A DNA stretch of 64,000 bases, from NCBI GenBank assembly GCA_025774245.1, contig JALGWI010000032.1, forward strand, positions 226 through 64,225. Direction: 5' to 3'. This stretch comes from a bacterium. GTDB lineage: Bacteria > Joyebacterota > Joyebacteria > Joyebacterales > Joyebacteraceae. The notes below the pieces were generated by a model. The model saw nothing but the letters and a program-made list of their open reading frames with translations, made no database searches and was not told the origin of the DNA. Each line of letters begins with the position of its first letter. Position 1 is the first letter of the stretch. Shown piece by piece: positions 11,045 through 62,839 of this stretch. The position numbers were made by a program, and so were the translations under genes.

Positions 11045-12447
11045 CGCTCGCCTCCCGTGAGCCGCTTCCTGAGCGTGTTTCGACTGATTCCGAGGAGCTG
11101 CGCCGCGCGAACCTGGTTGCCCCCCACCCGGGCGAGCGCCTCCTCGGCGAGGAGCCGCTCCACCGCGGAGACGACGGCCCCGTCGATCGACGGCGTCCCG
11201 GCTTCGGCGAGCCGCTCGAACTCGGCGCGGACGGTCGCGGCCAGGTCGCCGGCCGCGCGGCCCTCGTCCGGCGTCGCGGGCGCACCCTCCCCCGCAGCTT
11301 CGAAGACGTCGAAGTCCTCGGGAGAGAGGACGCCGGTGCGGTTCAGGGCCACTGCCCGCTCGATCGCGTGCTCGAGCTCGCGGACGTTCCCGGGCCACGG
11401 GTAGCTCTCGAGGAGATCGACCACGTCGGGAGACATGCCCTCGATCTCCCGTTTCATCTCGGTCTTGGCTCGCTCGAGGAAGTGCTCCGCGAGGAACGGA
11501 ATGTCCGGGCGCCGGTCCCTCAGGGGCGGGATGAAGAGCGAGACCACCTTGAGCCGATAGAAGAGGTCGACGCGGAAGTGCCCCTCCTTCATGAGCCTGA
11601 CGAGGCTCCGGTCGGTCGCCGCGATCACGCGCACGTCGACCTTCGTCCTCGTTCTCGCGTGGGGCCTCTCGAAGTAGCCGCTCTCGAGCACGCTCAGGAT
11701 GCGCCCCTGGGTCGCGAGCCCCGCGCGGTCGATCTCGTCGAGGAAGACCGTCCCTCGGTTCGCCTGCTCGAAACGCCCGGCGCCGGCCTCGATGCCTCCG
11801 CCGTCGGTCCACCCGAAGAGCTCCGCGTCGAGCGAGTCCCCCGGAAGGGCCGCGCAGTTGAGCGCCACGAACGGGCGATCGCGCCGGTTGCTGTTGTAGT
11901 GGACGGCCCTGGCGACGAGCTCCTTACCGGTGCCCGCCTCGCCGTTGATGAGGACCGCGGCGCCGGTCATCGCCACCTGGCCGATGAGCTTGTGGATCTC
12001 GATCATCTCGGGCGTCTTGCCGACGATCGCTCCGAGGTCGGTGACGTCGCCCGGCCCGGGAGAACCGATCGTCCGGATCACGCGGCCGTCCGAGGAGAGC
12101 GCGCGGCGCGCGGCGTCCTCGAGGCCGCCGGGCAGCGTCTCGCGCGGCAGGTAGTCGTACGCGCCCTCGCGCATCGACTCGATGGCGCCCCGGGTGCTCG
12201 TCGTCTCGGCGACGACGACGATCGGGAGCCTGCGCTCTACCTCCTTGATCGCGCGGAGCACCTCGACGGGCGTCATGGACTCGATTCCGTGCTCGAGGAC
12301 GACGAGGTCGGGTCGGCGCTCGTCGAGCGCCGCCAGGAGTGCCCTGGGATCGGACCAGACGTGCACGCTGTAGGCGAGGCCGGGGAGAGCCCGAACGAGA
12401 TCGGCCGCCTCCCGCTCACTTCTGTCGAGGATCCATACGTCCTTCAT
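11041..12447 (-). CDS. NtrC-family AAA+ transcriptional regulator with atypical receiver domain and no GAFTGA motif
   Basis: Receiver-like N-terminus; central AAA+ domain (GEAGTGKE Walker A, FLDEID Walker B, R-finger region); C-terminal Fis-type HTH (AAQLLGISRNTLRKRL). Phospho-acceptor position is Glu (PDLVVLEHG); GAFTGA replaced by GGGIEAGAG. Confidence 0.85.
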   Translation of the reverse strand: MKDVWILDRSEREAADLVRALPGLAYSVHVWSDPRALLAALDERRPDLVVLEHGIESMTPVEVLRAIKEVERRLPIVVVAETTSTRGAIESMREGAYDYLPRETLPGGLEDAARRALSSDGRVIRTIGSPGPGDVTDLGAIVGKTPEMIEIHKLIGQVAMTGAAVLINGEAGTGKELVARAVHYNSNRRDRPFVALNCAALPGDSLDAELFGWTDGGGIEAGAGRFEQANRGTVFLDEIDRAGLATQGRILSVLESGYFERPHARTRTKVDVRVIAATDRSLVRLMKEGHFRVDLFYRLKVVSLFIPPLRDRRPDIPFLAEHFLERAKTEMKREIEGMSPDVVDLLESYPWPGNVRELEHAIERAVALNRTGVLSPEDFDVFEAAGEGAPATPDEGRAAGDLAATVRAEFERLAEAGTPSIDGAVVSAVERLLAEEALARVGGNQVRAAQLLGISRNTLRKRLTGGER

Positions 12448-12495
12448 GGGTCCACCCCCGCGGATGAACTCCCGCCGCCGCTCCCCCGCCGGGCG

Positions 12496-13440
12496 CTAGC
12501 TTCGGATGCCCATCGTCTTGCGGAACCAGGCGACCGTACGCTCGAGGCCGTCCTCGAACGAGACGTTCGGATCGAAGCCCAGCAGTTCCCGGGCCTTGCC
12601 GATGTCGGCGAAGGAGTGCATGACGTCGCCGCGGCGGGCCTCGTCGTACCGGGCGTCGATCGTCGCACCGATCAGGTCGCGGAGCCTCGCGAAGAGCTCG
12701 TTCACCGTAATCGTCGCGCCGCACGCGACGTTCATGACCTCCCCGATGCCGCGATCGGTCTCCGCGGCGAGGAGGTTGGCGTCGACCACGTTCGCCACGT
12801 ACGTGAAGTCACGCGACTGCTCGCCGTCCCCGTAGACGATCGGCGCCGTGCCCTTCAGGAGGGCCGCGACGAAGATCGGGACGACGGCGGCGTACTGGGA
12901 GGTCGGATCCTGCCTGGGGCCGAAGACGTTGAAGTACCTCAGGGGAACGCACGGCAGCCCGTAGAGCTTCGAGAAGACCTGGCAGTAGTACTCGCCCCCG
13001 AGCTTCCCGACGGCGTAGGGCGACCCGGGCGCCGGCGGCATGGTCTCGACCTTCGGAAGCACGGGCGTGTCGCCGTAGATCGAGGACGAGCTCGCGTAGA
13101 TCACGCGCCGCACGCCGGCGTCGCGGCTCGCCGCCAGCACGTTCAGGGTGCCGCCGACGTTGACCTCGTTGCTCGTCACGGGGTCATCGACCGACCTCGG
13201 GACCGAGGCGAGCGCCGCTTCGTGAAAGACGACCTCGACACCCTCGACCGCCGACCTGACGGCGTCCAGACTCCTGATGTCGGCCTCGTGGAGTTCGATC
13301 CGGCCGGCGAACGGCCCGACGTTCTCGCGACGTCCCGTCGAGAAGTTGTCGATGACGCGAACCTGGTGACCGAGCTCGAGCAGCCTCTCGACGAGGTGCG
13401 AGCCGATGAACCCGGCGCCACCGGTAACGAGTGCACGCAT
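12496..13440 (-). CDS. NAD-dependent nucleotide-sugar epimerase/dehydratase (WbpP/Gne-like UDP-HexNAc(A) 4-epimerase family)
   Basis: GGAGFIGSHLVERL Rossmann motif, VIDNFSTGRREN, YASSSSIYGD (catalytic S), YxxxK downstream. Confidence 0.85.
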   Translation of the reverse strand: MRALVTGGAGFIGSHLVERLLELGHQVRVIDNFSTGRRENVGPFAGRIELHEADIRSLDAVRSAVEGVEVVFHEAALASVPRSVDDPVTSNEVNVGGTLNVLAASRDAGVRRVIYASSSSIYGDTPVLPKVETMPPAPGSPYAVGKLGGEYYCQVFSKLYGLPCVPLRYFNVFGPRQDPTSQYAAVVPIFVAALLKGTAPIVYGDGEQSRDFTYVANVVDANLLAAETDRGIGEVMNVACGATITVNELFARLRDLIGATIDARYDEARRGDVMHSFADIGKARELLGFDPNVSFEDGLERTVAWFRKTMGIRS

Positions 13441-13458
13441 TGATTGCTCCCGCGGCCG

Positions 13459-14751
13459 TTAGATCTTCCTGATGTTGTCTCCGTTCATGCCCTTCAGAGC
13501 GTTCCTCGTGTCGACGATGGGAACGCCCGATCCGGCGAGCATCTCCCTGTCGAAGGCCGAGTGCGCCGTGGTGATCACCACGCAATCGACGCTCGAAAGG
13601 AGCTCGGGCGTCAGATCCTCGCTCCTCATCTCCATGCCCCCCACAGAGAGCTCCGGAACGTGAGGGTCAGAGTAGCACAGGTCGGCCCCCTTGTCCCTCA
13701 GGAGCTTGATCACGTCGAGCGCCGGGGCCTCCCGGACGTCGTTGATGTCCTCCTTGTAGGCCACCCCGAGGATGAGGACCTTCGAGCCCTTGACCGGCTT
13801 GCCGCCGTCGTTCAGGCAGTCGGAGATCTTGGAAACAACGTAGTACGGCATGCTGCCGTTGATCACGCCCGCCAGCTCGATGAACCTGGCCTCGAACCCA
13901 CTCTCTTTCGCCTTCCACGAGAGGTAGAACGGATCGATCGGAATGCAGTGCCCGCCGAGGCCCGGCCCCGGATAGAACGGCATGAACCCGAACGGCTTCG
14001 TCGCGGCGGCGTCGATCACCTCCCAGACGTCGATCCCCATGCGGTCGCTCATCAGCGCGAGTTCGTTGACGAGACCGATGTTGACGCTCCGGAACGTGTT
14101 CTCGAGGAGCTTCACCATCTCCGCGACCTTCGTTGAGGAGACCGGCACGACCGGTCCCAGCGTCTGCTCGTAGAGGATCACGGCGCGCTCGGTGCACGCG
14201 GGAGTCACGCCGCCGACCACCTTCGGGATGTTCTTCGTGTTCCAGTCGGGGTTCCCGGGGTCGACGCGCTCGGGCGAGAACGCGAGGTAGAAGTCCTCCC
14301 CCACCTTGAGGCCCGTGTCCTCGAGCCTCGCGAGGATGACCTCCTCGGTCGTGCCCGGGTAGGTCGTGCTGTCGAGGATGATCATCATGTCCTTGTGGAG
14401 GTACTTCACGATCTCCTGGACGGCCGACCTGACGTACGAGATGTCGGGGTCGCGCGTCTTCCTCAGAGGCGTGGGAACGCAGATGTCGACCGAGTCGACA
14501 TCCTTGAGGGCCGCGTAGTCGGTCGTGGCCGTGAAGATCCCCGAAGCCAGGCTCTCCCGCACCCACTCACTCGGCACGTCCTGGATGTACGACTCACCAG
14601 CGAGGAGCGTCCGCACCTTCTTCTCGTCGTTGTCGATCCCTGTCACTCGGAATCCCGCACGGGCGAACTCCATCGACAGCGGGAGTCCAACGTATCCCAG
14701 TCCGATGACGCCCAGATGCGCTTCTCTCGTTTGCAGTTTCTCCTTGAGCAA
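13459..14751 (-). CDS. UDP-N-acetyl-D-glucosamine / -mannosamine 6-dehydrogenase (WbpA/WecC/TviB family)
   Basis: GVIGLGYVGLP N-terminal NAD fold; catalytic Cys region GGHCIPID; UDP-binding C-terminal domain. TTG start with AAGGAGGAG 5 nt upstream (alternative GTG 27 nt further 5'); upstream ORF part is out of register with the overlapping gene 14811..16082. Confidence 0.8.
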   Translation of the reverse strand: MLKEKLQTREAHLGVIGLGYVGLPLSMEFARAGFRVTGIDNDEKKVRTLLAGESYIQDVPSEWVRESLASGIFTATTDYAALKDVDSVDICVPTPLRKTRDPDISYVRSAVQEIVKYLHKDMMIILDSTTYPGTTEEVILARLEDTGLKVGEDFYLAFSPERVDPGNPDWNTKNIPKVVGGVTPACTERAVILYEQTLGPVVPVSSTKVAEMVKLLENTFRSVNIGLVNELALMSDRMGIDVWEVIDAAATKPFGFMPFYPGPGLGGHCIPIDPFYLSWKAKESGFEARFIELAGVINGSMPYYVVSKISDCLNDGGKPVKGSKVLILGVAYKEDINDVREAPALDVIKLLRDKGADLCYSDPHVPELSVGGMEMRSEDLTPELLSSVDCVVITTAHSAFDREMLAGSGVPIVDTRNALKGMNGDNIRKI

Positions 14752-14810
14752 CGTCTCCTCCTTGCTACCCCTTCCCACCGCACGGAGAACGACGACCCCC
14801 GGCGGGGCGT

Positions 14811-16082
14811 CTAGCCCATTGACAGGGCCAGGGAGACCATCCCGGCCGTGGCAATCGGCAACAACAGATTGTCCGCTGGGCCCAGTGGCAGGGACTCCAG
14901 CACGCTCGCTACCGCTCCGACGGCCAGCGCCCACGGCAGCGAGACATAGAACATAGCAATAATCACGCCGACTCCGAAGAGAGCCATCGACCCGACGAGC
15001 GTCTTCCCGGGATTGTGCGGGAGCGCGGTGCTCCCGAAGGCCCTGCCGACGAGGCTCGCAGCACTGTCCCCTATGGCAAGAATCAGCACCCCGGCCGTCG
15101 CGGCCGGATGGCCGAAGAAAGCGACTGTGAACCATATACCGATCCCGAAGAGCAGCGGCCCCCACACGAGCCCCCTCGGCTCGGAGACGCGCATCGACCG
15201 CCACGTCAGGGCCGCGAAACCGGGCAGGGCCACGCCCTGGAGCCTGAGCGCCTCCGACATCATGTAGATGAGCGTGATGCCGCCGATGAGCCACAGGGCG
15301 AAGGTCTTCGACCAGGCCGCGATCAGCGGGACGAAGATGGCGCACGTGTGGATCGCCTTGCGGAGCATCTCGTGGCGAACGGCGATCCCCTGCAGCGTCA
15401 CGCCGAACCTGACGCCCTCCGGGAAGAACTCGAGGATCTCCCGGAGGTTCCGAGTATGAAGCACGAAGCTCGCCCTGCGGAGGATCGACCACTCGGGATT
15501 GAGACCGATGCTCCTCCACGCGGCCTCGACGATCTCGAGGTTGCTGCCGTCGTCGACGATGACGGTAGCGTCGGACCAGGAGAGCCCCTTCTCCCTCAGG
15601 ATCCCCTCGAGTCCGAGCCGCTTGCCGTGCGCCGAGTGGCGCTCGCCGAGCATGCGTCCGGTCAGGACCCCGTCGTTCTCCTCGAGGAGCACGCCGTACG
15701 CGCCGTCGGCTCCCACCTGCCTGGCGATCTTCTCGACGACCTGCTGCGGAACGCCCGCGCTCACGAGCACGACGCTGTAGCCGGCCTGCTTGAGCGACGC
15801 GCAGACCTCGCCCGCGCCGCGCGCCAGCCGGACGGACTCGGCCGCATGCAGGACGTGGTCGATGCCGGCGCCGCGCTGGTAGTAGTAGGCCCGTTCGACG
15901 GCCTCGCGGACCGTGATGAACCCGATCTTGAGCAGGAAGCCGAGCCAGAGATGGCGCACCCACACCCACGGGCTGGTCAGCCAGGCGAGCCGCGAGAGGA
16001 AGAGCCCCCGCAGGAGTACCCCGTCGACGTCGAAGGCGACCAGCCCTCTCGAGCCGGCCAAGGACCTACCCCCCCCGCTCAC
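14811..16082 (-). CDS. Fusion protein: N-terminal HAD-superfamily phosphatase domain plus C-terminal polytopic CTP-dependent polyprenol/dolichol kinase-like (CdsA/DolK/VTE5 family) domain
   Basis: GTG start; HAD motif I FDVDGVL at residue about 18, ...VIVDDGSN; C-terminal 6-7 TM helices with ...HPAATAGVLILAIGDSAASLVGRAFGSTALPHNPGKTLVGS (conserved kinase-family loop). Confidence 0.6.
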   Translation of the reverse strand: MSGGGRSLAGSRGLVAFDVDGVLLRGLFLSRLAWLTSPWVWVRHLWLGFLLKIGFITVREAVERAYYYQRGAGIDHVLHAAESVRLARGAGEVCASLKQAGYSVVLVSAGVPQQVVEKIARQVGADGAYGVLLEENDGVLTGRMLGERHSAHGKRLGLEGILREKGLSWSDATVIVDDGSNLEIVEAAWRSIGLNPEWSILRRASFVLHTRNLREILEFFPEGVRFGVTLQGIAVRHEMLRKAIHTCAIFVPLIAAWSKTFALWLIGGITLIYMMSEALRLQGVALPGFAALTWRSMRVSEPRGLVWGPLLFGIGIWFTVAFFGHPAATAGVLILAIGDSAASLVGRAFGSTALPHNPGKTLVGSMALFGVGVIIAMFYVSLPWALAVGAVASVLESLPLGPADNLLLPIATAGMVSLALSMG

Positions 16083-16305
16083 CTGACCTCCCGAAGAAGA
16101 CGACGACTCCGCGGAACGCGGCCCAGCACGCGATACCGGCCATGAGAATCGCCACGTAGGCGAAGCGGTGGCCGTAGCGCGGAACGATCAGCCCGAAGTA
16201 CCGCGACACTCCGTAGAACAGCATGGCGGCCAGGGCGATGTTCGCGCCGCCGACCGAGTACCTGTACAGCCTGGGTTGTCCGGAAGGACGCTGACCCGTC
16301 CGCAT
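16066..16305 (-). CDS. Possible small two-TM membrane protein (79 aa)
   Basis: Two clear hydrophobic helices (ANIALAAMLFYGVSRYFGLIV; AYVAILMAGIACWAAF); ORF ends overlapping the GTG start of the HAD-kinase gene. No homology recognised; could be an artefact. Confidence 0.3.
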   Translation of the reverse strand: MRTGQRPSGQPRLYRYSVGGANIALAAMLFYGVSRYFGLIVPRYGHRFAYVAILMAGIACWAAFRGVVVFFGRSGERGG

Positions 16306-16326
16306 CGGAGGCCTCCGCTCCGCGGC

Positions 16327-18462
16327 TCAACGGACCACGGCGAACTTCCCCGCCTCCAGCCACGACGGGTCCTTCCCCCCGCCGTCGTACACGCGGAGCT
16401 GGTAGACGTAGACGCCGCTCGCGAGATGAGTCGCGCTGCCGCTGAACTCGGTCCACGCGACCGAGTTCCATCCGCCGAGGGTCCCCATGTTCTCCTCGAT
16501 GGAGCCGATGGGGTTGTGGTACCTCAAGAAGCTCCCGAGGGTCTGCCCCGTGATGTCGAAGACGTCGATCTCGACGGAACCGGCGTCGCGAGAGAGATCG
16601 TAGCCGAAGGCCAGCTCCTCCGATTCCCCCGAGGGACCGGGGTACGGGTTCGGGTAGGGATAGTGGTCGGTCACGAAGAGGGCCGGCGCGTTGACCCTGA
16701 TTGCGACGGCCGCGATGTTGTCCTCGTCCGTGAGCTCGTCGACGCCCTCCGCGATGATCCGGGCCGTAACCTCGTGATTGCCGAGATCGTCGTCGTCGAA
16801 CTCCCAGTCGAACTCGTAGGTGATCACCTCTCCGCCGCCCATCGTACGTTCGGTCTGGAAGACCGAGAGGAGCTCACCCTCGTCCTCGGGGCCGTCCCAG
16901 ATCTCGAGCGTGAGGTCGACGAACTCCTCGGGCCCGAAGACGTGGACGTCCACGCGGACCGTCGTCGCCGAGTTCGTCCAGAACTCGTCCGGCGTGAATC
17001 GGAAGTCCTCCGAGAACACGGCGAGGTTGATCGCGGAGTCGGGATCGGCGAGACGCGCGATCGCGCCCGCGACCATCTTCGCCGTCGAGGCGAGCTGGTC
17101 AAGGGAGATGTGCGCGATCGTGTCGGCGACCGTGTGGTAGTTCGGGTTCCAGTAGTTGGGGTGCCAGTTTTCGAGGGCCGTGAGGGCGTCGTACCCCTCG
17201 ATCCAGAAGCTCATGTGGTCGCTGTAGGGGGGGATCCTGTCGATGCGGCGGGCGCCGAAGCCCGGGAAGTACTCCGCGTACTCGTCCTCCGCCGTGTCGA
17301 CGAGCCAGCTCGCGAGCCACTTCGTGCTCGGGTTCGTGAGCACGTGACAAGTGTCCTGAGCGGCGCCCGGCGGGTTGTACCCGACCATGTCGACGTTGAT
17401 GACGCCGTAGATCGTGTCGCCCTCGGCGGCGGCGGAGCCGGCGTAGACTTCGCTGCCGAAGAGGCCCGGTTCCTCGGCGTCGAAGAGGATGAACCGGATG
17501 TCGTACGGGAACGAGACGTCGGCCAGCACGCGTGCCGCTTCGAGCACGGTCGCGACGCCCGTCGCGTTGTCGTCCGCGCCGGGAGCCGGGGAGTCGCACC
17601 ACCAGTACCGGTCGCTCGGAGGATAGGATCTCTGCGCCGTTGCGTCGTAGTGCGCCGAGACGACGAAGTACCCCTGAAGCCTCCCCGTCCCCGGGAGGAC
17701 GCCTACGATGTTGTGCATCGCGTACGGCACGATCATCCCGGTCGTGTCGCCGCACACGAATCCGTTCAGCTCGAATCGTTGCGTGTCGACGAGCGCACCC
17801 GCCGGGAGACACGACTCGAGCGCGTCCATGATGTAGGGAATCGCCTCGGTGTTCTTCTCTTCCCGATAGGCGTAGCGCGTCCTCCACGCCCCCCCCGGGT
17901 ATCGGGTCAGTCGTTCGACGTGCGCGGCGAGCGAGTCGGCGGAGACCGCCTCCAGCACGTCCTGCACGAGCCCGCGCACGCTTCGCTCGTCACGCCCGGC
18001 GGCGAGGCTCGCGAGGAGCGGTGGAGTCTCGTCGAAGAGCGCCGCGACCGGAATCGACGCCGGGAGTGGGAGGGCCATGAAGGAAGCTCGGCGGATCTCG
18101 TGAAGCACGTCGGGCGACGCCCCCACGAGCACCGCGCCGTCCGGCTCGACCCACAGGATCTCTCCCGCCCGCTCGAGCTCTTCGAGGTCGGCGGCCGGAT
18201 AGCACAGATAGAGCTCCGCCCAGCGGCCGACGTCGATCACCTCCTCGACGATTCGACCGCGCCTCCGGAGGGCTGCCCCGAGTTGCGAGTCGCCTTCGAT
18301 GAGCGCCTCGGAAGTGCCGACGTGCCGCACCACGACTCCCTCCGCCTCGAGCGAGACGAGGCTTGCACCCTCTTCGTACGTGATTGAGTAGATCACCTGT
18401 CCGGCCGCCGGGGCCGCGGCGAGCGCGAGACACAGCACCGCCGTCACGATCGGGGTCTTCAT
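16327..18462 (-). CDS. Secreted M28-family zinc metallopeptidase with C-terminal T9SS/FlgD-Ig-like sorting domain
   Basis: ATG at residue 91 of the ORF with AGGAGG 6 nt upstream (the ORF's 5' extension translates the tRNA-Arg gene); signal peptide MKTPIVTAVLCLALAAAPAAG; M28 motifs (HYDAT, DDNATGVATVLEAARVL, DAEEPGLFGS, DHMSFW); C-terminal ...GVYVYQLRVYDGGGKDPSWLEAGKFAVVR. Confidence 0.8.
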   Translation of the reverse strand: MKTPIVTAVLCLALAAAPAAGQVIYSITYEEGASLVSLEAEGVVVRHVGTSEALIEGDSQLGAALRRRGRIVEEVIDVGRWAELYLCYPAADLEELERAGEILWVEPDGAVLVGASPDVLHEIRRASFMALPLPASIPVAALFDETPPLLASLAAGRDERSVRGLVQDVLEAVSADSLAAHVERLTRYPGGAWRTRYAYREEKNTEAIPYIMDALESCLPAGALVDTQRFELNGFVCGDTTGMIVPYAMHNIVGVLPGTGRLQGYFVVSAHYDATAQRSYPPSDRYWWCDSPAPGADDNATGVATVLEAARVLADVSFPYDIRFILFDAEEPGLFGSEVYAGSAAAEGDTIYGVINVDMVGYNPPGAAQDTCHVLTNPSTKWLASWLVDTAEDEYAEYFPGFGARRIDRIPPYSDHMSFWIEGYDALTALENWHPNYWNPNYHTVADTIAHISLDQLASTAKMVAGAIARLADPDSAINLAVFSEDFRFTPDEFWTNSATTVRVDVHVFGPEEFVDLTLEIWDGPEDEGELLSVFQTERTMGGGEVITYEFDWEFDDDDLGNHEVTARIIAEGVDELTDEDNIAAVAIRVNAPALFVTDHYPYPNPYPGPSGESEELAFGYDLSRDAGSVEIDVFDITGQTLGSFLRYHNPIGSIEENMGTLGGWNSVAWTEFSGSATHLASGVYVYQLRVYDGGGKDPSWLEAGKFAVVR

Positions 18463-18571
18463 GCCTGCCTCCTGAAGCGTTCCGGAACGCGCGCCTCCCG
18501 GGGCGCGGAGTCGCCGCGTCGGGACCCCACGGGTGCGGGCCGGCGACGAGTCGCCGCCGGCCCGCCCGATC

Positions 18572-18648
18572 TGGTACGCCCGAGAGGATTCGAACCTCCG
18601 ACAACTGGAACCGGAATCCAGTGCTCTATCCAGCTGAGCTACGGGCGC
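18572..18648 (-). tRNA. tRNA-Arg (anticodon CCG)
   Basis: GCGCCCGTAGCTCAGCTGGATAGAGCACTGGATTCCGGTTCCAGTTGTCGGAGGTTCGAATCCTCTCGGGCGTACCA; cloverleaf with anticodon loop TTCCGGT; CCA encoded. Confidence 0.9.
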
Positions 18649-19768
18649 TCTCTGCAATCTCGATGAGCTCGTAGTTCCTCGTTCCCACCCCGAGCTCCTC
18701 ACCATACCTGAGCTGAACGGTCGGGTCAACATCGGGGTGGAGGTCCCTGAACTTGTCCCCCCCGGCCCGGTAACCCTCGCTCAGGCTGCTGTTTCGCGCG
18801 GCGGGCGCCTCGTTCACCAGATCGTACGAGGCCTGGTCAATGGCGATCGGGTCGACCGAGGCGAGGACTCCGAGGTCCGGTACGATCGGGACCTTCGCCG
18901 TCCCGTAGCAGTCGCAGAGCGGGTGGACGTCGGTGATGAAGCTCAGGTACCCGATCCGGTCTCGCTTCAGCGAGGTGATGGCCTTCAGGTACTCTACCAT
19001 CTTCCTCTGGAACACGTCGGTGCTTTCGTTCCAGCGGATTCCCACGACCTTCTCAGGGCAGACAGCGATGCACTCCCCGCAGCCGATGCACGTCTGCTCG
19101 TCTATCTGGGCGACCTCGCCGACCCGGATCGCGTCGGCCGGGCACCAGGACGCGCAGATGCCGCAGGCGATGCAGCCCTGGCGGACGTACGGCTTCGTCG
19201 TGGAGTGCTGCTCCAGTTTCCCGGCCCGCGAGGCGCCACCCATGCCCAGGTTCTTGATCGCCCCGCCGAACCCGGACAGCTCGTGGCCCTTGAAGTGTGT
19301 GACGGCGAGGATGCTGTCGGCCTTCACGAGTTCGGATCCGACGGCGGCCTCCTTGAGGATCTGGCCGGCGACCGGCAGCCGGACCTCGCTCGTGCCCCTG
19401 AGCCCGTCCGCGATCACGACCGGCGCACCGACGGCGGAGTACGTGAAGCCGTGCTCCGCGGCCGTTCGCATGTGCAGGACGGTGTCGCTTCGGCTCCCGC
19501 GGTACAGCGTGTTCGTGTCGGTCAGGAACGGCCTCGCGCCCTCCTGGAGAAGCCACGAGACGACCCTCCGAACGAACAGGGGCTTCACGTGGCCGGTCTC
19601 GCTGCTCTCGCCGAAGTGGAGCTTGACGGCAACGATCTTGTCCTTCGCGGCGATCTTCCTGAGGTCGCTCTCCTGGAGCAACCGGTCGAGCCGGGCCAGG
19701 ATGTCGTCCGCGCCGCCGTCGTACACACGGAGCAGGTGGACCCTGCTTTTCGTAGGACCGTCCGGCAC
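18626..19768 (-). CDS. DUF362-family protein with embedded 2x[4Fe-4S] ferredoxin domain
   Basis: GTG start with GGAGGG upstream; CIACGICASWCP and CIGCGECIAVCP cluster motifs; DUF362-like flanks. The last 7 codons overlap the 5' end of tRNA-Arg. Confidence 0.7.
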   Translation of the reverse strand: MPDGPTKSRVHLLRVYDGGADDILARLDRLLQESDLRKIAAKDKIVAVKLHFGESSETGHVKPLFVRRVVSWLLQEGARPFLTDTNTLYRGSRSDTVLHMRTAAEHGFTYSAVGAPVVIADGLRGTSEVRLPVAGQILKEAAVGSELVKADSILAVTHFKGHELSGFGGAIKNLGMGGASRAGKLEQHSTTKPYVRQGCIACGICASWCPADAIRVGEVAQIDEQTCIGCGECIAVCPEKVVGIRWNESTDVFQRKMVEYLKAITSLKRDRIGYLSFITDVHPLCDCYGTAKVPIVPDLGVLASVDPIAIDQASYDLVNEAPAARNSSLSEGYRAGGDKFRDLHPDVDPTVQLRYGEELGVGTRNYELIEIAESARSSAG

Positions 19769-19800
19769 GCTTCCCTCCCCCGTTCGACGGACCGCCGCCG

Positions 19801-20364
19801 TCAGCTGCCGCCCCGCCGCCCCGCGGCAAGCGCGCGCCGCGCCTCGACGGCGTAGATGACTCCCGATACGACCGCGAGCCCCACGCCCGCGATCGCGAGC
19901 GGCAGCTCGAGCGGCTCGATGTTGAGCACGTAGGCCAGCACCATCGCGGACAGGACGACGAACCCGATCTTGCCGGGCCTGTTCGCCGCCGGAACCGACG
20001 CGGCCCTCCGCCCGACCACGACGACGCCCACGAGGCCCGCCACGTCCCTCGCGACGAGCACGACGAGCGCCGGCATCGGAAACTCCCCCCTGATCGCCAG
20101 GAACAGGAGGATCGAGTCGATCGCGATCTTGTCCGCGATCGGGTCGAGGATCTTCCCGATCTCGGTGACGCGCCCCGTCTTCCTCGCGATGTACCCGTCG
20201 ATGCCGTCAGACAGCATCATGGCCAGGATGACGACCACGGCGTCCCCGCGCCGTCCCGACGCCAGCAGGACCAGCACGACCGGCACGAGCACGATCCGCG
20301 CGAGGGTCACGAGGTTCGGCGGCGTCAGGAGATCACGGAGCTTGAATCGCTCGATCCGGCCCAT
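19801..20364 (-). CDS. pgsA: CDP-diacylglycerol--glycerol-3-phosphate 3-phosphatidyltransferase
   Basis: CDP-alcohol phosphatidyltransferase motif DGIDGYIARKTGRVTEIGKILDPIADK; 4-5 TM helices. Confidence 0.85.
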   Translation of the reverse strand: MGRIERFKLRDLLTPPNLVTLARIVLVPVVLVLLASGRRGDAVVVILAMMLSDGIDGYIARKTGRVTEIGKILDPIADKIAIDSILLFLAIRGEFPMPALVVLVARDVAGLVGVVVVGRRAASVPAANRPGKIGFVVLSAMVLAYVLNIEPLELPLAIAGVGLAVVSGVIYAVEARRALAAGRRGGS

Positions 20365-20368
20365 CCGG

Positions 20369-21235
20369 CTACCTCTCCCTCACGCGCCCCGCCCAGCGCA
20401 TCTTCCTGCGGAGGATCTCGTAGTACGAGTGCTCCGCCATCTCGACGAGCTGCGCCCTCGTCCTCGCCGTCCTCACGTGCACGACGTCTCCCTCGCCGAT
20501 GCCGAACGAGCGCTGGCCGTCGGTCGTCACGATCGTCTGATCGTCGCTCGAGAGCATCTCGACCTCGATCTCGACCGTCGGCGGGACGATGAGCGGCCGC
20601 ATGCTCAGCGTGTGCGGACAGATCGGCGTCAGGATGATCGCCTCGACGTTGGGAGCGAGGACCGGCCCCCCCGCGGAGAGCGAGTGCGCGGTCGATCCCG
20701 TCGGAGTCGACAGGATGAGGCCGTCGGCGGCGTAGCGCGTGACGAGCTGCCCGTCGACGCGCGCCTCGAACGAGAGCATCCTCGACTCAGCGTCCTTCGT
20801 GATGACGACGTCGTTCAGGGCGACGGCGACGCCGTCCTGCCCGGCGACCCCGGTCTCGAGCATCATCCGGCCGCTCACGGGAAGCTCCCCGGGGTCGAGG
20901 CACCCGAGGACGCCTCCGAGCTCGTCCCCGGCGACCTGCGTGAGGAACCCCAGGCTCCCCATGTTGACTCCGAAGATCGGAGTCTCCCTCCCGGCGATCG
21001 CGACCTCGCGCGCGGCGAAGAGGATCGCGCCGTCGCCACCGAACGCGAAGATCAAATCGGACCTGGCGACGACGTCCGCCGAAGGAACGCAGTCGACCGA
21101 CGCCGGCGCCTCGCTCCGGTTCCGGTCGTCGACGATGACATCGAGCCCGCGCTCAGCCGCCCACACGCGGACCCTCTCGATGGCCTCCCCGATCCCCTCC
21201 TTGAGGGGATTCGCCATGATGCCGACTGTCTTCAT
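20369..21235 (-). CDS. nadK: NAD kinase
   Basis: GGDGAIL motif, NMGSLGFL, conserved ATP-NAD kinase C-terminal domain. Confidence 0.9.
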   Translation of the reverse strand: MKTVGIMANPLKEGIGEAIERVRVWAAERGLDVIVDDRNRSEAPASVDCVPSADVVARSDLIFAFGGDGAILFAAREVAIAGRETPIFGVNMGSLGFLTQVAGDELGGVLGCLDPGELPVSGRMMLETGVAGQDGVAVALNDVVITKDAESRMLSFEARVDGQLVTRYAADGLILSTPTGSTAHSLSAGGPVLAPNVEAIILTPICPHTLSMRPLIVPPTVEIEVEMLSSDDQTIVTTDGQRSFGIGEGDVVHVRTARTRAQLVEMAEHSYYEILRRKMRWAGRVRER

Positions 21236-21239
21236 CGCG

Positions 21240-23141
21240 TCATGACCCTCCTCTGACGACCCGCGAGCGCGCCACGAGATCCGCCGCGCGCGCTGCGATC
21301 CGCTCGACGGTCAGTCCGCAGTCCTCGAGCAGACGACCGCGGGACCCGTGTGTGATGAACTCGTCGGGGAGCGCGACGATCCTCGTCCTGACGTCGTCGA
21401 TCCCCTCGGCCTGGAGAAGCTCCATGACCGCCGAGCCGAAGCCGCCCATGGCGACGTTCTCCTCGATCGTGACGACCGCCCCCGTCCTCGAAGCCTCCTC
21501 GACGATGAGGTCGCGGTCGAGCGGCTTCACGAAGCGCGCGTTCACGACCGACGCCTCGATCCCGTCGGCCGCGAGCTTCTCGGCGACCTCCTCGGCCACC
21601 TGCACCATCGAGCCGATCGCGATGAGGGAGACGTCGGTGCCCTCCCTCAGGCGCTCGCCCCGTCCGATCGGAACGACCGGCGGGTCGAAGTCCATCCGGA
21701 CGCCTCGCCCCGCGCCGCGGGGGTAGCGCACGGCGATCGGTCCCTCGTCGTGCGCGACCGCGGTCCGGACCATCGAGCCGAGTTCGTTCTCATCCTTCGG
21801 CGCCATGAGTACGAGGTTCGGCACGGCCCGGAGGAACGACAGGTCGAAGACACCGTGGTGCGTCGGCCCGTCGTCTCCAACGACGCCTCCGCGGTCGATC
21901 ATGAACCTGACCGGCAGGTTCTGGAGACAGACGTCGTGGATGATCTGATCGTAGGCGCGCTGGGCGAACGAAGAGTAGAGAGCGACGACGGGCTTCACCC
22001 CCTGAGCCGCGAGCCCGGCGCCGAACGTCACGGCGTGCTGCTCCGCGATGCCGACGTCGAAGAAGCGATCGGGGAAGTGCTTGGCGAAGTGCACGAGCCC
22101 GGTGCCGGCCGGCATCGCCGCCGTCACCGCCACGATCTTCTCGTCGTCCTCCGCGAGCGAAACGAGCGTGCGGCCGAAGACCTCAGTGTACGAGATCGCC
22201 GTCGGCTGCTTCGTGAGCGTCCCGGTCGTCTTGTCGAAGGCGCCGATCCCGTGAAACCGGGAGGCGTCCTCCTCCGCGGGCGCGAACCCCTTCCCCTTCG
22301 TGGTGATCACGTGAACGAGGAGCGGCCCCTCGGTGTGCTTGAGCCGCTCGAACGCGCGGATCAGGAGCTCGACGTCGTGACCGTCGATGGGGCCGAAGTA
22401 CTTGAAGCCGAGCTCCTCGAACAGGATCCCGGGCACGAAGATGCCGCGGAGCCCCTCGAGGGCGCGGCTCGTCAGCTCGCGCGTCCGCTCGCCGACGGCG
22501 GGGATCTTCCCCATGATGTCCCAGACCTCGGACTCGAGCCGCTGGTAGGTCGGCGCGGTCAGGAGCCTCGTCAGGTACTGCGAGAGCGCGCCGACGTTCT
22601 TCGAGATCGACATGCGGTTGTCGTTCACGACGACCATCAGGTTCTTCTTCAGGTGTCCCGCCTGGTTCAGCCCCTCGAACGCGAGGCCCGCCGTGAGCGA
22701 CCCATCGCCGATCACGGCGATCACCCGGAAGTCCTCCTCGAGGAGGTCCCGGGCGCAGGCCATGCCGAGCGCGGCGGAGATCGACGTGCTCGCGTGGCCC
22801 GTGTTGAAGGCGTCGTGCGGGCTCTCCTCGCGGCGCGGGAAGCCGGCGATGCCTCCGTACTGGCGGAGGGTCTCGAAGCTCTCCCGGCGCCCCGTCAGGA
22901 GCTTGTGGGCGTAGCTCTGGTGGCCGACGTCCCAGATGATCTTGTCCGTCGGCGAATCGAAGACGCGATGGAGCGCGAGCGTGAGCTCGATCACGCCCAG
23001 GCTCGGCGCCAGGTGGCCGCCGTACTTCGACACCACCCGGACGATCTCCTGGCGGAGCTCCTCTGCGAGCGGCTCGAGCTCGTCCTCGGGGAGCGCCTTG
23101 AGATCCGCAGGCTGGTCGATCCTGTCGAGAATGCGTCCCAT
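21240..23141 (-). CDS. dxs: 1-deoxy-D-xylulose-5-phosphate synthase
   Basis: 633 aa; TPP-binding GDG...N motif, transketolase-like pyrimidine and C-terminal domains; classic xseB-ispA-dxs neighbourhood. Confidence 0.95.
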
Positions 23142-23166
23142 CGTTCCCTCAGTTCCGCCGGTCCAC

Positions 23167-24051
23167 TCAGTTCCGCCGATTCACGATGAACCGGGCGATC
23201 TCGCGGAGCGGCCAGGCCTCGCCGCCGAACCGCTCGAGGGCGGCAAGCGCCTCGTCCGTGAGCCCGCGCGCCCGTTCCTCCGCCTTGTCCAGTCCGACGA
23301 CCGCCGGATACGTCTGCTTCCCGCGGCCCCGGTCCTTGCCGACGGCCTTCCCCATCTCGTCCTCGGTTCCCCGCTCGTCCAGGAGGTCGTCGGCGATCTG
23401 GAACGCCAGCCCGATCGCCCTTCCGTAGGTACGGAGGGCCGCGAGGGCGTCCTCGCCGGCGCCGGCCGAGAGCGCGCCGATCGCGACCGCGGCCTCGATC
23501 GGGAGCGCCGTCTTGTGCGTGTGGATGAACTCCACGCTTCCGAGCGTCGGCGCCGATCGCTCGCCCTCGAGGTCGGCCGCCTGGCCCCCGACCATTCCCG
23601 ACGGCCCGTTCGCGCTCGCGAGCTCTCGCAGGACGGCGTTCCGGCGCTCGTGCGACAGGGCGTCCTCGCCGAGGACGATGGCGAACGCGAGCGTCAGGAG
23701 CCCGTCGCCCGCGAGGATCGCGAGCCCCTCGCCGTACGCCTTGTGGCAGGTCGGACGGCCCCGCCTGAGGTCGTCGTCGTCCATCGCGGGAAGGTCGTCG
23801 TGGATGAGCGAGTAAGTGTGGACGATCTCGGACGCGCACGCCGGCGCCATGACCGCGTCGCCCTCCCCGCCCGCGAGCTCGTAGGCCGCGATGGCGAGGA
23901 TGGGGCGGAGCCGCTTCCCTCCCGAGAAGACGCTGTACCGCATCGCCTCGTGCAGCCTCTCGGGCGGCGTGTCGGCCGGGGGCAGGAGGCGGTCGAGCGC
24001 CCGCTCGACGGCCTCCCTCTTCCCGGCAAGGTACGACTCGAGCGACGCCAC
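23167..24051 (-). CDS. ispA: (2E,6E)-farnesyl / geranylgeranyl diphosphate synthase
   Basis: [38 protein letters not shown]. Start taken at GTG 5 nt after the xseB stop (the ORF's upstream ATG at 24090 would overlap xseB by 35 nt). Confidence 0.85.
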
Positions 24052-24055
24052 CCCG

Positions 24056-24298
24056 CTAGCTCTCCTCTCCGATGTCGTCGTCGAACTCATCGAAGGCGAT
24101 CTGTCCTTCCTCGTCGCGCGAGAGCTTGAGGACCCGCTCCTGCGCCTTGTCCAGGATCTTCGTGAGCTTCCTGATGAGCTTCACGCCCTCCTCGTATGCC
24201 TCGAGGGACTCCTCGAGACCGAGGTCGCTCTCCTCGAGCTTCCCCACGAGCTTCTCGAGCTGGGCCATGTCGCTCTCGAACGTCTGCTTCTTGGTCAC
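24056..24298 (-). CDS. xseB: Exodeoxyribonuclease VII small subunit
   Basis: 80 aa from GTG (GGAGGA 4 nt upstream); FESDMAQLEKLVGKLEESDLGLEESLEAYEEGVKLIRKL... matches XseB; GTG overlaps the xseA TGA (GTGA). Confidence 0.8.
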   Translation of the reverse strand: MTKKQTFESDMAQLEKLVGKLEESDLGLEESLEAYEEGVKLIRKLTKILDKAQERVLKLSRDEEGQIAFDEFDDDIGEES

Positions 24299-37856: not shown

Positions 37857-39272
37857 CTACCTGCCTCCCGAACGTATCCCCACCACCCGGATCTCGGTCA
37901 TCTCCTCGATGGCGTACTTCGGGCCCTCCCGGCCGAGGCCGCTGTCCTTCTCCCCGCCGTAGGGCATGAGATCGACCCGGAAGGTCGGGACGTCGTTCAC
38001 CATGACCCCGCCGCACCGGATCTCCCGGGCCGCCCGGAGGGCGTCGTCGAGCCGGTCGGTGTAGATCCCGGCCTGGAGGCCGTACCGCGAGGCGTTGACG
38101 GCCCCGATCGCCTCGTCGAGGGTCCCGAACGGTCGGACGGCGATCACGGGCGCGAACGCCTCGTCCTTCCAGACGCGGGCCTCGTCGGGGACCCCGGTCA
38201 GGATCGTCGGCTCGACGAGGGCGCCCTCGCGCCCGCCGCCGACGGCGAGCCCTGCGCCCATCGCCCGCGCCTCCTCGATCCAGCTCTCGGCGCGCTCGGC
38301 CTCGTTCTCCTCGATCATGGGACCGACGTCGGTCTCCTGGAGGAGCTGGTCGCCGAGACGGAGCGACCGGGTGACCTCCACGGCGCGCTCGAGGAAGCGG
38401 CCCAGCACGCTCTCCTCCACGAGCACCCGCTGGACCGAGATGCAGACCTGCCCCGCGACCGCGAAGCCCCCCCTCACGCAGCGCTCCGCCGCCGTCTCGA
38501 CGTCGCAGCGGTCCGTGACGATGACCGCGGAGTTCGCCCCCAGCTCCATCGCGGTCTTCTTGAGCCCGGCGCGCGACATGATCGCCTTCCCGACCTCGAC
38601 GCTTCCGGTGAACGTCACCATCCGCGGGACCGGGCTTCCGACGAGCCTGTCGCCCACCGTCCTCCCTGAGCCCGTGATCACCGAGAGCGCCTCGGGCGGC
38701 AGCCCCGCCTCGTAGAGGATCTTCCCGAAAGCGATGTCGGTGAGGGGGGTGACGGTGGCGGGCTTCAGGATCACCGCGTTCCCCGCGGCGAACGCGGGCG
38801 CGATCTTGTGGGCGGCGAGGTTGACGGGGAAGTTGAACGGCGTGATGGCGACGACCACCCCGACGGGGACGCGCAGGAAGAACCCGAAACGGCCCTTGCC
38901 GGTCGGGGCGCCGTCGAAGGGCACGATCTCCCCCGCGAGCCGCCGCGCCTCCTCGGCCGAGACGGCGAGCGTCTGCACCGTGCGCGAGATCTCGCCACGG
39001 GCCTCCCGGATCGTCTTCCCCACCTCGGACGCCATCGTCCGGGCCAGGTCCTCGATGCGGTCGCCGACGAGCCGCGACGCCCGGGACAGGATCTCCGCCC
39101 GGTCGAACCGGCTCATGCGCTCCATAATGCGCGCGCCCTCGACCGCGATCGAGAGCGCCTCGTCTACCTGGCTCTCTGTGGCCGACGGGACCGTTCCGAC
39201 CTCGGAACCGTCGAACGGATTGAGGACGGGGATCTCCTGCTCGCCCGCGACCTCCCGCCCGCCGATCAGCAT
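37857..39272 (-). CDS. NAD(P)-dependent aldehyde dehydrogenase
   Basis: 471 aa; ALDH Glu (MELGANS) and catalytic Cys region (GQVCIS), G-x-x-x-G NAD motif (FTGSVEVG); start 2 nt after the upstream gene's stop. Confidence 0.85.
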   Translation of the reverse strand: MLIGGREVAGEQEIPVLNPFDGSEVGTVPSATESQVDEALSIAVEGARIMERMSRFDRAEILSRASRLVGDRIEDLARTMASEVGKTIREARGEISRTVQTLAVSAEEARRLAGEIVPFDGAPTGKGRFGFFLRVPVGVVVAITPFNFPVNLAAHKIAPAFAAGNAVILKPATVTPLTDIAFGKILYEAGLPPEALSVITGSGRTVGDRLVGSPVPRMVTFTGSVEVGKAIMSRAGLKKTAMELGANSAVIVTDRCDVETAAERCVRGGFAVAGQVCISVQRVLVEESVLGRFLERAVEVTRSLRLGDQLLQETDVGPMIEENEAERAESWIEEARAMGAGLAVGGGREGALVEPTILTGVPDEARVWKDEAFAPVIAVRPFGTLDEAIGAVNASRYGLQAGIYTDRLDDALRAAREIRCGGVMVNDVPTFRVDLMPYGGEKDSGLGREGPKYAIEEMTEIRVVGIRSGGR

Positions 39273-39274
39273 CT

Positions 39275-47531: not shown

Positions 47532-48596
47532 CTACCCTCCGCCGATGAGCCCCTTCTTCCTGAGCTCGGCCACGACGGTCCTGACGTCGCGCGCCCGGTC
47601 CTTCGGACAGACGAGGGTGACCCCGTCCGTGCGCGCCACGACCACGTCCCGCATCCCGATGACGGCCACGACGCCCTCCTCGGAGTAGACCACGCAGCCC
47701 TCCGAGTCGACGATCACCGAGCGGCCCTCGGCCACGTTCCCGTCCCCGTCCTCCTCCCAGATCCGCGCGAGCGCCGGCCAGGCTCCGACGTCGTCCCAGC
47801 CGATCTCGCACGGCACGACCGTCACGTGATCCGCCTTCTCCATCACGGCGTAGTCGACCGAGATGTCAGGGACTGTCTCGTAGTACTCCTCGATCTCCGC
47901 CTCGAAGCCGACCGTGCCGGGCACCTCCGTGACGCCGGCGAGCGCTTCCGCGACCGGAGCGAGGTGGCGGCCGATCTCCTCGAGGAACCGGTCGGCGCGC
48001 CAGATGAAGATCCCGCTGTTCCAGTAGTAGCCCCCGTCCAGGACGTAGCGCGCGGCCGTCTCCCGGTCGGGTTTCTCGACGAACCTGTCGACCTGCCGGA
48101 CGCCGTCGACGCCGGCCGGCCCGCCTGCCTTGATGTAGCCGTACTCGGTCTCCGGCCTCGTGGGACGTATCCCGAGCGTCACGAGCGCCCCCTCGGACTC
48201 GGCCTCCTCGAACGCGAGCGAGATCGCCCGCCGGAAGGCGTCGGCGTCGAGGATGACGTGGTCGGCCGGCAGAACGACCATGGCGGCGTCCGGGTCCGCC
48301 GCGAGCAGCACGCTGGCCGCCAGCGCGATCGCCGGCGCTGTGCTCTTCCCGACGGGCTCACCGATGATCCGCTCGGTCGGAACCGGCTCGAGCTCCTCGA
48401 GGATCTTCTCCCGGAGGGAAGCGCCGGTGAGGACGAGCGTGTCGTCGACCGAGACGAGCGGGGCGATCCGCGTGAGCGTCTCGGAGACGAGCGACGAGCG
48501 GCCGATGAGCTTCAACAGCTGTTTCGGCCGCTCCCGGGTGCTCATCGGCCAGAGCCTCTCGCCCCAGCCCCCGGCCAGAATTACAGCGTACCTCAT
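47532..48596 (-). CDS. Mannose-1-phosphate guanylyltransferase (nucleotidyltransferase domain only, no PMI cupin)
   Basis: 354 aa; AVILAGGWGERLWP (G-x-G-x-R-L), ...EKPD...GGYYWNSGIFIW.... Confidence 0.8.
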   Translation of the reverse strand: MRYAVILAGGWGERLWPMSTRERPKQLLKLIGRSSLVSETLTRIAPLVSVDDTLVLTGASLREKILEELEPVPTERIIGEPVGKSTAPAIALAASVLLAADPDAAMVVLPADHVILDADAFRRAISLAFEEAESEGALVTLGIRPTRPETEYGYIKAGGPAGVDGVRQVDRFVEKPDRETAARYVLDGGYYWNSGIFIWRADRFLEEIGRHLAPVAEALAGVTEVPGTVGFEAEIEEYYETVPDISVDYAVMEKADHVTVVPCEIGWDDVGAWPALARIWEEDGDGNVAEGRSVIVDSEGCVVYSEEGVVAVIGMRDVVVARTDGVTLVCPKDRARDVRTVVAELRKKGLIGGG

Positions 48597-48675
48597 GGGT
48601 CGGAAGCTCCTCTTGCGACCTCGCGCATCGCGCCCTACCCCGTCGTGCGTCGCCGAGCGGCGCGTCCCGGAGCGG

Positions 48676-49563: not shown

Positions 49564-49625
49564 GGACCCACGCTCCTTCTTCGACCTCGGGGCCGTCGTC
49601 AGCCCGCCGGGATTCGCCGGCGCCG

Positions 49626-51940: not shown

Positions 51941-51974
51941 CGATGGCTCCGCCCGTCCGTGGCCCAGGAGCTTG

Positions 51975-54175: not shown

Positions 54176-54227
54176 GTGAGCCTCCTGCCGGCGACCGGGC
54201 GAGTCCCTCCGGCCGACGAAAGCCCCA

Positions 54228-55553: not shown

Positions 55554-55573
55554 GGCCGGAATCCAAGCTCCTC

Positions 55574-62805: not shown

Positions 62806-62839
62806 GACGCTCCCGCCGGTCCGGACGACCACGCCCCCG

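Follow-up and report, generated by a model that had tools for sequence, protein, structure and literature searches.

A review of the SEC59/DGK1/VTE5 family of lipid-alcohol kinases lists only plant and Synechocystis enzymes (PMC9782597). For the dolichol kinase DOLK, the cytidine triphosphate (CTP) site has been reported to be cytoplasmic (PMC13586052, citing Shridas and Waechter 2006), and comparative genomics has described archaeal fusions of COG0170 with COG1836, that is, of a Sec59-like domain with DUF92, exemplified by Mbar_A3310 (PMC5898192). On the phosphatase side, the known bacterial phosphatases of undecaprenyl diphosphate (C55-PP) all work at the outer face of the membrane, which for the E. 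coli enzymes is the periplasmic side; C55-PP made de novo has no assigned phosphatase, if one exists (PMC4641660). Here, we describe a gene that touches both subjects, at 14811..16082 on the minus strand of a 64,000-nucleotide stretch of bacterial DNA (the window; contig JALGWI010000032.1 of assembly GCA_025774245.1, GTDB lineage Joyebacterota). The 423-amino-acid product is a HAD-IB/SEC59-DGK1-VTE5-like protein, and it is very probably a single membrane protein that joins a HAD phosphatase domain to a CTP-type lipid-alcohol kinase-like domain. We tentatively propose, at somewhat less than an even chance, that it is a bifunctional (poly)prenyl-phosphate homeostasis enzyme, combining a prenol kinase with a matching lipid-phosphate phosphatase.

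The nearest published item is the note on Sec59-like/DUF92 fusions. Proteins of the Mbar_A3310 type resemble the window protein in pairing a Sec59-like domain with a second prenyl phosphate enzyme, but their partner is a second CTP-transferase-type domain, whereas here it is a phosphatase. The phytol kinase VTE5, taken together with the farnesol kinase FOLK (plants; Synechocystis slr1652), is without a HAD domain, and DOLK has no phosphatase domain and a reported ~15 transmembrane (TM) segments, compared with seven in the fusion. As functional analogues we propose BacA/UppP and the PAP2 enzymes PgpB, YbjG and DOLPP1, whose substrates are polyprenyl (di)phosphates and whose folds are unrelated to HAD. 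The HAD domain of the fusion also differs from the periplasm-facing lipid-carrier phosphatases of E. coli in being predicted to lie in the cytoplasm.

The fusion protein and its two domains

The fusion is encoded by a single open reading frame (ORF; stop codon at 14811-14813) with a GTG start codon, four bases before which stands a Shine-Dalgarno-like GGGAGG. GC content at third codon positions (GC3) is 0.90, in line with the window's other coding frames. Public metagenomes contain an identical protein and ~88 full-length homologues with 33-100% identity, and the close homologues with named sources all come from Candidatus Eisenbacteria or related metagenome-assembled genomes (MAGs). Conservation is reported below for two alignments: A1, with 25 sequences of the family, and A4, with 49 long sequences (the window protein and 48 long homologues). 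A search for related loci based on A1 returned Eisenbacteria/Effluviviaceae MAGs only. The AlphaFold2 (AF2) model of the protein, with 25 homologues as input, has a mean predicted local distance difference test (pLDDT) score of 88.8 and a predicted template modelling (pTM) score of 0.79.

An earlier reading of the window, made from sequence only, had placed a HAD DxDGV motif in the N-terminal ~200 residues. That claim is borne out: FDVDGV occupies residues 17-22, within a HAD-IB (SerB-like) phosphatase domain that extends over residues 12-222 (15417..16049, minus strand) and is identified by PF12710, Foldseek and phmmer. In Pfam, PF12710 matches residues 15-174 with 45.7 bits, passing its cutoff of 27, and PF00702 is also above threshold (30.1 versus 26.4). 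The nearest NCBIfam models are SerB and HAD-IB models, every score being under cutoff; TIGR01488 (HAD-SF-IB) falls marginally under, at 42.5 versus 45. A PgpC/YfhB model was absent among the eight NCBIfam matches at E<=1, the library's inclusion of such a model being unchecked. The best PDB matches to the AF2 model in Foldseek are phosphoserine phosphatases (PSPs), with M. jannaschii PSP (1l7o) giving a TMt of 0.91 and a root-mean-square deviation of 1.7 A over 208 columns. In the model, a helical C1 cap follows motif I as an insertion into a Rossmannoid core, and phmmer matches the domain to 1f5s with an E of 3.7e-12.

Additional evidence for an active phosphatase comes from the catalytic residues. 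Motif I, F17-D18-V-D20-G21 (16020..16034, minus strand), supplies the nucleophile Asp18 and the Asp+2. Both aspartates are invariant in A1, as are S108 of motif II, K154 of motif III and D177-D178-x-x-N181 of motif IV, and none of the motif II-IV residues is conserved in fewer than 43 of the 49 A4 sequences. Since the residues of motifs I-IV are conserved in both alignments, the N-terminal domain is, judged by its motifs, a catalytically intact HAD-IB phosphatase rather than one that has lost its catalytic residues. The Asp+2, the general acid/base, varies outside the Eisenbacteria clade, in which it is Asp. All 44 wider fusions that cover motif I retain D18, and residue 20 is Asp in 26 of them and Glu in 18, all distant fusions. 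DxE in motif I is unusual among HAD phosphatases.

Phosphoserine phosphatase was considered as the function of the HAD domain and rejected. The score for TIGR00338 is 61.4 bits, against a cutoff of 144.15. In alignments to 1f5s and M. avium SerB2, residues E20 and R56 of M. jannaschii PSP, which we take to be the phosphoserine-binding residues from the 1F5S/1L7P structures, fall on L27 and A65. Family members have Q/H/Y/I/R/L at position 27 and V/I/S/T/A at position 65, neither being a conserved acid or base. The C1 cap (approximately residues 24-85) is hydrophobic and Trp-rich: its first two helices (24-55) hold seven aromatic residues, four of them Trp, with 3-12 aromatics in homologues and zero in the aligned stretch of M. 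avium SerB2. Thus, the window protein shares the HAD-IB fold, the C1 cap and motifs I-III, the same in kind, with the SerB proteins of M. jannaschii and M. avium, but differs from them in its hydrophobic cap, in the two replaced residues and in motif IV, which is DDxxN in the fusion and GDGxND in SerB.

The sequence-only reading had further claimed that the same polypeptide ends in a polytopic domain with the conserved loop of the CdsA/DolK/phytol-kinase superfamily. The one ORF does continue into a seven-TM SEC59/DGK1/VTE5-type CTP-dependent lipid-alcohol kinase-like domain at residues 230-423 (14814..15395, minus strand; hhalign and profile search), with the loop at residues 338-365 (GDSAASLVGRAFGSTALPHNPGKTLVGS). 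The proposed domain scan succeeded in part, in that the HAD domain passed PF12710 while the C-terminal domain had no Pfam match and needed profile methods. For these, profile A2, built from the C-terminal domain of 15 homologues, was compared with profile A5, built from 16 plant phytol-kinase (VTE5) sequences, all of them C-terminal fragments; the retrieval query for A5 was a VTE5 fragment 99% identical to one database entry. The hhalign comparison gave a Prob of 99.25 and an E of 5.8e-20 over 121 columns, with an identity of 32%. It takes in the C-terminal half of the membrane domain and spans both GD..A...GR.FG...LP.NP.K...GS and ESLP...DN...P.

Comparison with solved structures gave a more limited result. 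The sole match of the A2 profile in the PDB was to TmCdsA (4q2e), a member of the same superfamily, with a marginal E of 0.017 confined to the loop and its flanking helices. TmCdsA chain residues 148-209 (numbering offset 20) align to the loop, and D144 and K167 of TmCdsA fall on the invariant D339 and K360; mutation of either D144 or K167 removes 98-99% of TmCdsA activity (PMC4083444). The alignment stops before the region of the D219/D249 metal dyad. Given the strong VTE5 match, the loop-only CdsA match and the alignment of the essential TmCdsA residues to D339 and K360, the C-terminal domain is assigned, by profile, to the kinase (SEC59/DGK1/VTE5) branch of the superfamily and not to an unrelated transporter family. 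A CdsA-type cytidylyltransferase as the likelier C-terminal function was rejected on the same two E-values.

Two motifs characterise the domain. The first is the CTP-binding-type loop, D339-SA-A342-SLV-G346-RAF-G350-x8-G-K360-T361-LV-G364 (14991..15068, minus strand), which is predicted to be cytoplasmic and was delimited by the DOLK motif and the TmCdsA alignment. The published CTP-binding motif of DOLK is DxxAxxxGxxxGx8KKTxEG (PMC13586052), and the fusion follows it in register, matching seven of nine fixed positions with exact spacing (D339, A342, G346, G350, K360, T361 and G364); the likeness to SEC59/DOLK is to the published motif, not to DOLK sequences. The two mismatches are the first Lys, which is G359, and the Glu, which is V363. 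The second motif, E396-S-L-P-x4-D404-N405-x3-P409 (14856..14897, minus strand), belongs to the kinase branch, on the basis of its conservation and the VTE5 alignment, in which it pairs with VESLP...DDN..VP of the plant enzymes. Residues E396 and P409 do not vary among 49 homologues, in which D404 and N405 are at least 90% conserved. In the three sequence sets tested, the motif was found in 84/88, 115/146 and 58/65 members. Close stand-alone relatives from Treponema are named by NCBI "SEC59/DGK1/VTE5 family" or "diacylglycerol/polyprenol kinase family".

A topology prediction, also suggested by the sequence-only reading, places the HAD domain in the cytoplasm, ahead of the seven helices. No signal or TM segment precedes the domain, whose conserved end, LREILEFFPEG, lies ~12 residues ahead of helix 1. 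The seven membrane helices were assigned from AF2 and DSSP helices together with hydropathy. All K/R residues except K259 are in or beside the loops with conserved motifs (282-306, 346-361 and 397-405), and the three short loops on the opposite, predicted outer, side are uncharged except for K259 at one helix boundary. Because nothing inserts ahead of the HAD domain, the helices number seven and the charges follow a positive-inside pattern, both active sites are predicted to be at the cytoplasmic face, and they are predicted to be close together. This orientation agrees with the funnel of TmCdsA (PMC4083444), and for the loop it agrees with DOLK.

Distribution of the fusion

A search of 1.84 billion representatives with the C-terminal profile returned 7915 relatives at E<=1e-3; a word-indexed search with the same domain profile found close relatives only. 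Among the best 150 representatives of 50%-identity clusters, ~45 have the length of the fusion (405-445 amino acids, with the domain starting at residue 220-256) and ~78 are complete stand-alone proteins of 190-230 amino acids. The HAD and kinase-like domains are kept together in 48 of the 49 sequences of A4, which come from several phyla. Named carriers, sought as the sequence-only reading had advised, are Eisenbacteria, Planctomycetota, Candidatus Scalindua and one archaeon, Candidatus Ranarchaeia. That reading had not recognised the architecture, and in this respect it has to be revised: the fusion is widespread in metagenomes, although no published characterisation was found. It is not categorically new, since both domain families are known and databases already label the fusion automatically, as "dolichol kinase/phosphoserine phosphatase" or "phytol kinase" at JGI and as "HAD-IB family phosphatase" at NCBI. 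A rough neighbour-joining tree of 137 domains implies at least 11 changes between fused and stand-alone forms and is too crude to decide on a single origin.

Indirect evidence on the phosphatase substrate comes from an archaeal relative. A 339-amino-acid protein from Candidatus Aenigmarchaeota (P0248, representative P0214; L038:6001-7020) carries a PAP2 domain (residues 47-149) in place of HAD before the same kinase-like domain (residues 151-335), and it is an independent phosphatase-kinase fusion. With two unrelated phosphatase folds attached to one kinase-like domain, the phosphatase may act on a related lipid phosphate. This is the strongest indirect argument available, and the PAP2-kinase fusion thereby adds some support for a lipid-carrier role.

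Gene neighbourhood

The minus-strand gene order in the window is M28 peptidase, a 79-amino-acid ORF, the fusion, a nucleoside diphosphate (NDP)-sugar dehydrogenase and a TviC-like epimerase, and a scan found no terminator-like site between these genes. The dehydrogenase (13459..14751, minus strand; 430 amino acids, with a TTG start after AAGGAGG) begins 59 bp after the fusion gene. It scores 427.9 bits with TIGR03026, above the cutoff of 189.8. Its closest models are the WecC/TviB equivalogs, with scores under their cutoffs. The SDR-type nucleotide-sugar epimerase (12496..13440, minus strand) is closest to the TviC model for UDP-GlcNAcA 4-epimerase (NF011728, 250.8 bits, under the cutoff of 760). 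At the family level, therefore, the downstream sugar genes are as first described. The dehydrogenase frame has no stop codon for another 1.2 kb upstream (13459-15969, minus strand), crossing the fusion gene in another frame; this extension is an artefact of high GC, and the gene in fact starts with the TTG at 14751, which gives 430 amino acids as in homologues. A 330-amino-acid gene call (P0089) with a UDPG_MGDP_dh_N domain covers 15% of the fusion protein at 78% identity, and is probably a merged or frameshifted call from another MAG that combines the tail of the fusion with the dehydrogenase.

Upstream, the 79-amino-acid ORF (16066..16305, minus strand) has two predicted TM helices and shares 17 nt with the 5' end of the fusion gene. 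Genes for 78-79 amino acids, with 39-45% identity, occupy the same position in three Eisenbacteria loci (L001, L003 and L004). No such gene was called upstream of five distant fusions. The small protein has no family match, and it may be a membrane partner of the fusion that is particular to this clade. The M28 peptidase was called as a mechanical ORF at 16327-18732, inside which lies a tRNA-Arg(CCG) (18572-18648, minus strand). Because of this tRNA, the peptidase gene must start downstream of it, probably at MKTPIVTAV....

The five genes are part of a 17-kb block that is collinear across Eisenbacteria (window 12000-24100, L001 and L003), in the order ispA-dxs-NAD kinase-PgsA-like-DUF362-M28-small ORF-fusion-dehydrogenase-epimerase-sigma-54 regulator-lptE-holA-nth. 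The fusion proteins in these genomes are only 57-61% identical, and the synteny is unusually stable for such divergence. The neighbours of five distant fusions (L005, L007, L035, L036 and L039) bear no relation to sugar nucleotides or to one another. No recurring neighbour was found across these five, one archaeal fusion, the PAP2 fusion and two stand-alone relatives, and none of these nine loci has a split HAD-plus-kinase gene pair. One of the five, L007 (7182-9188), has a KdsA-like gene (DAHP_synth_1) that ends 13 nt ahead of a fusion 33% identical to the window protein (P0088), with genes for a DAGK_cat lipid kinase, a GT2 and a PMT_2 glycosyltransferase nearby.

Elsewhere in the window, a Wzy-type polysaccharide cluster (47532-61894, minus strand) encodes an NTP-transferase and at least five glycosyltransferases of family GT4, together with a second trans-polyprenyl synthase (48676-49737), a heparinase II/III-like protein (55574-58183) and a Wzy_C protein (60329-61894). 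Its presence implies that the organism uses polyprenyl phosphate carriers. Canonical cdsA, uppS, bacA and PAP2 genes were absent from the window ORFs scanned, a 64-kb window saying nothing about the genome as a whole. Three ORFs of 204-258 amino acids with coding-like GC3 (38095-39348, plus strand; 62056-62832, minus strand) have no Pfam match at E<=1e-5.

Proposed function and rival explanations

Control of the phosphorylation state of a lipid carrier is the most economical reading of the fusion's role, and on this point the sequence-only reading stands; its further claim, that the carrier module is attached to sugar-nucleotide synthesis, reduces to Eisenbacteria synteny. In the proposed mechanism, one inner-membrane polypeptide would hold two catalytic sites at the cytoplasmic face. 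The C-terminal kinase would transfer the gamma-phosphate of cytoplasmic CTP to the hydroxyl of a membrane isoprenoid alcohol, most likely a polyprenol such as undecaprenol, with a shorter prenol or diacylglycerol (DAG) possible. The Mg-dependent HAD-IB phosphatase, held ~12 residues from TM1, would act via a phospho-Asp18 intermediate and dephosphorylate the matching lipid phosphate, most likely the terminal phosphate of polyprenyl diphosphate. Both domains would then converge on the polyprenyl monophosphate carrier and set the size of its pool. The pairing of a diphosphate phosphatase with an alcohol kinase is favoured because both reactions yield the monophosphate carrier and a futile cycle is avoided. 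Retention of both domains across several phyla speaks for a functional coupling of the two activities, and the polyprenyl phosphate consumers encoded by the Wzy-type cluster count as support for the model, in which substrates, flux direction and possible regulation are inferred. The groups that carry the fusion, namely Eisenbacteria, Planctomycetota, Scalindua and the archaeal carrier, are not known as phototrophs, and phytol is therefore an unlikely substrate.

Several observations weigh against this proposal. A kinase and a phosphatase working on the same phosphate would make a futile cycle, and among solved and curated proteins, those closest to the HAD domain are without exception phosphatases of soluble metabolites. 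Chain length cannot be read from sequence, since characterised members of the kinase family act on phytol, farnesol, dolichol and DAG. The isolated C-terminal domain of the window protein has no match to PF01148 or any other Pfam family even at E<=10, and a Foldseek search of the PDB with the model of this domain returned nothing at E<1, not even CdsA or CarS; we treat the Foldseek result as a limit of the method for all-helical membrane folds and not as counter-evidence for homology. The Glu of KKTxEG (V363, 14994-14996) is V/L/I in 74 of 84 proteins of the Eisenbacteria clade, and is present in 87 of 108 wider relatives. Plant VTE5 likewise has a non-acidic residue at this position (Ala in 25/32 sequences), and so the missing Glu is compatible with kinase activity. 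Finally, gene context outside Eisenbacteria is uninformative, and a literature search for the HAD-kinase fusion found no paper describing the architecture.

Among the rival explanations, one holds that the two domains form a DAG kinase and a phosphatidic acid (PA) phosphatase that control the PA/DAG balance. In yeast, Dgk1 is a CTP-dependent DAG kinase and Pah1 is a DxDxT, HAD-type PA phosphatase, and the fusion would be a prokaryotic analogue of this pair. The NCBI label "diacylglycerol/polyprenol kinase family" on close stand-alone relatives is consistent with such a pair, as are the PgsA-like CDP-alcohol phosphatidyltransferase gene ~4 kb upstream of the fusion gene, syntenic in the clade, and the DAGK_cat gene near the distant fusion in L007; Dgk1 also belongs to the same CTP-transferase-type family (PMC2459266). 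However, the measured profile similarity, from a comparison that did not include Dgk1, is to the VTE5 prenol kinases, and the HAD domain is SerB-like, of class IB with a C1 cap. Moreover, opposing activities on the same phosphate need regulation, of which there is no sign in the sequence. Taken together, these points make a DAG/PA pair unlikely.

A second alternative is that the HAD domain acts on a soluble metabolite, such as phosphoserine, 3-deoxy-D-manno-octulosonate 8-phosphate (KDO-8-P) or a HexNAc phosphate, or CDP/CMP, and is merely tethered to the kinase. PSPs are its best sequence and structure matches, with pyrimidine 5'-nucleotidase III and KDO-8-P phosphatases further down among the Foldseek matches, but the phosphoserine-binding Glu and Arg are unconserved, equivalog models all score far under their cutoffs, and the cap is hydrophobic throughout the family. 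KDO-8-P phosphatase is likewise a HAD enzyme, which makes the KdsA-like gene 13 nt before the L007 fusion a lead for this alternative, and the UDP-sugar genes downstream of the fusion in Eisenbacteria would also fit, yet neighbours vary between lineages. The replacement of HAD by PAP2 in the archaeal relative points instead to a lipid phosphate. A soluble substrate is accordingly given a low probability.

It has also been suggested, in the sequence-only reading, that the fusion belongs to the synthesis of UDP-N-acetylhexosamine and its uronic acid (UDP-HexNAc(A)) by the genes directly downstream, in which case it would be the dedicated lipid-carrier module of that polysaccharide pathway. While the 59-bp gap, the shared strand, the absence of a terminator-like site and the conserved fusion-dehydrogenase-epimerase order are consistent with this idea, interpretation of the adjacency is confounded by the 17-kb synteny: it carries little functional signal because the entire block, unrelated housekeeping genes included, is collinear in the same genomes. 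The coupling is unsupported beyond lineage synteny because the five distant fusions have unrelated neighbours, and the glycosyltransferase/Wzy cluster of the window lies more than 30 kb away. Such a dedicated module is quite improbable. Least probable of all is a CdsA/CarS-like cytidylyltransferase that makes a CDP-lipid, with the HAD domain dephosphorylating a later product of a CDP-alcohol transferase, for example phosphatidylglycerophosphate to phosphatidylglycerol as PgpC does: TmCdsA is the sole PDB sequence match and its essential D144 and K167 are conserved, PF01148 ("Cytidylyltransferase family") is weakly matched by 18 of the 49 A4 sequences (best 9e-6) and a PgsA-like gene is nearby, but the VTE5 match is ~18 orders of magnitude better and reaches the C-terminal ES...DN...P motif, the CdsA match ends at the loop, short of the D219/D249 region, and NCBIfam output for the fusion protein contained no cdsA, CarS or PgpC-type model.

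The bifunctional prenyl-phosphate enzyme thus remains the preferred reading. A more specific form of it, which we consider unlikely, makes the HAD domain a polyprenyl-diphosphate phosphatase that faces the cytoplasm and is physically coupled to a polyprenol kinase using CTP, so that polyprenyl phosphate would be made from new polyprenyl diphosphate (Pren-PP) or from free polyprenol without flipping. If this is true, the HAD domain would provide the phosphatase for de novo C55-PP that Manat et al. described as "missing" (PMC4641660), and archaeal members could supply the unassigned Pren-PP dephosphorylation ahead of dolichol phosphorylation. Should the substrate of the HAD domain prove to be a soluble metabolite, what remains is an ordinary domain fusion. 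Peptidoglycan, O-antigen, capsule and protein glycosylation all depend on polyprenyl phosphate as their limiting carrier, and prokaryotic members of the SEC59/DGK1/VTE5 family are almost all uncharacterised. The fusion and its archaeal PAP2 variant provide a testable candidate pair for carrier-lipid homeostasis at the cytoplasmic face.

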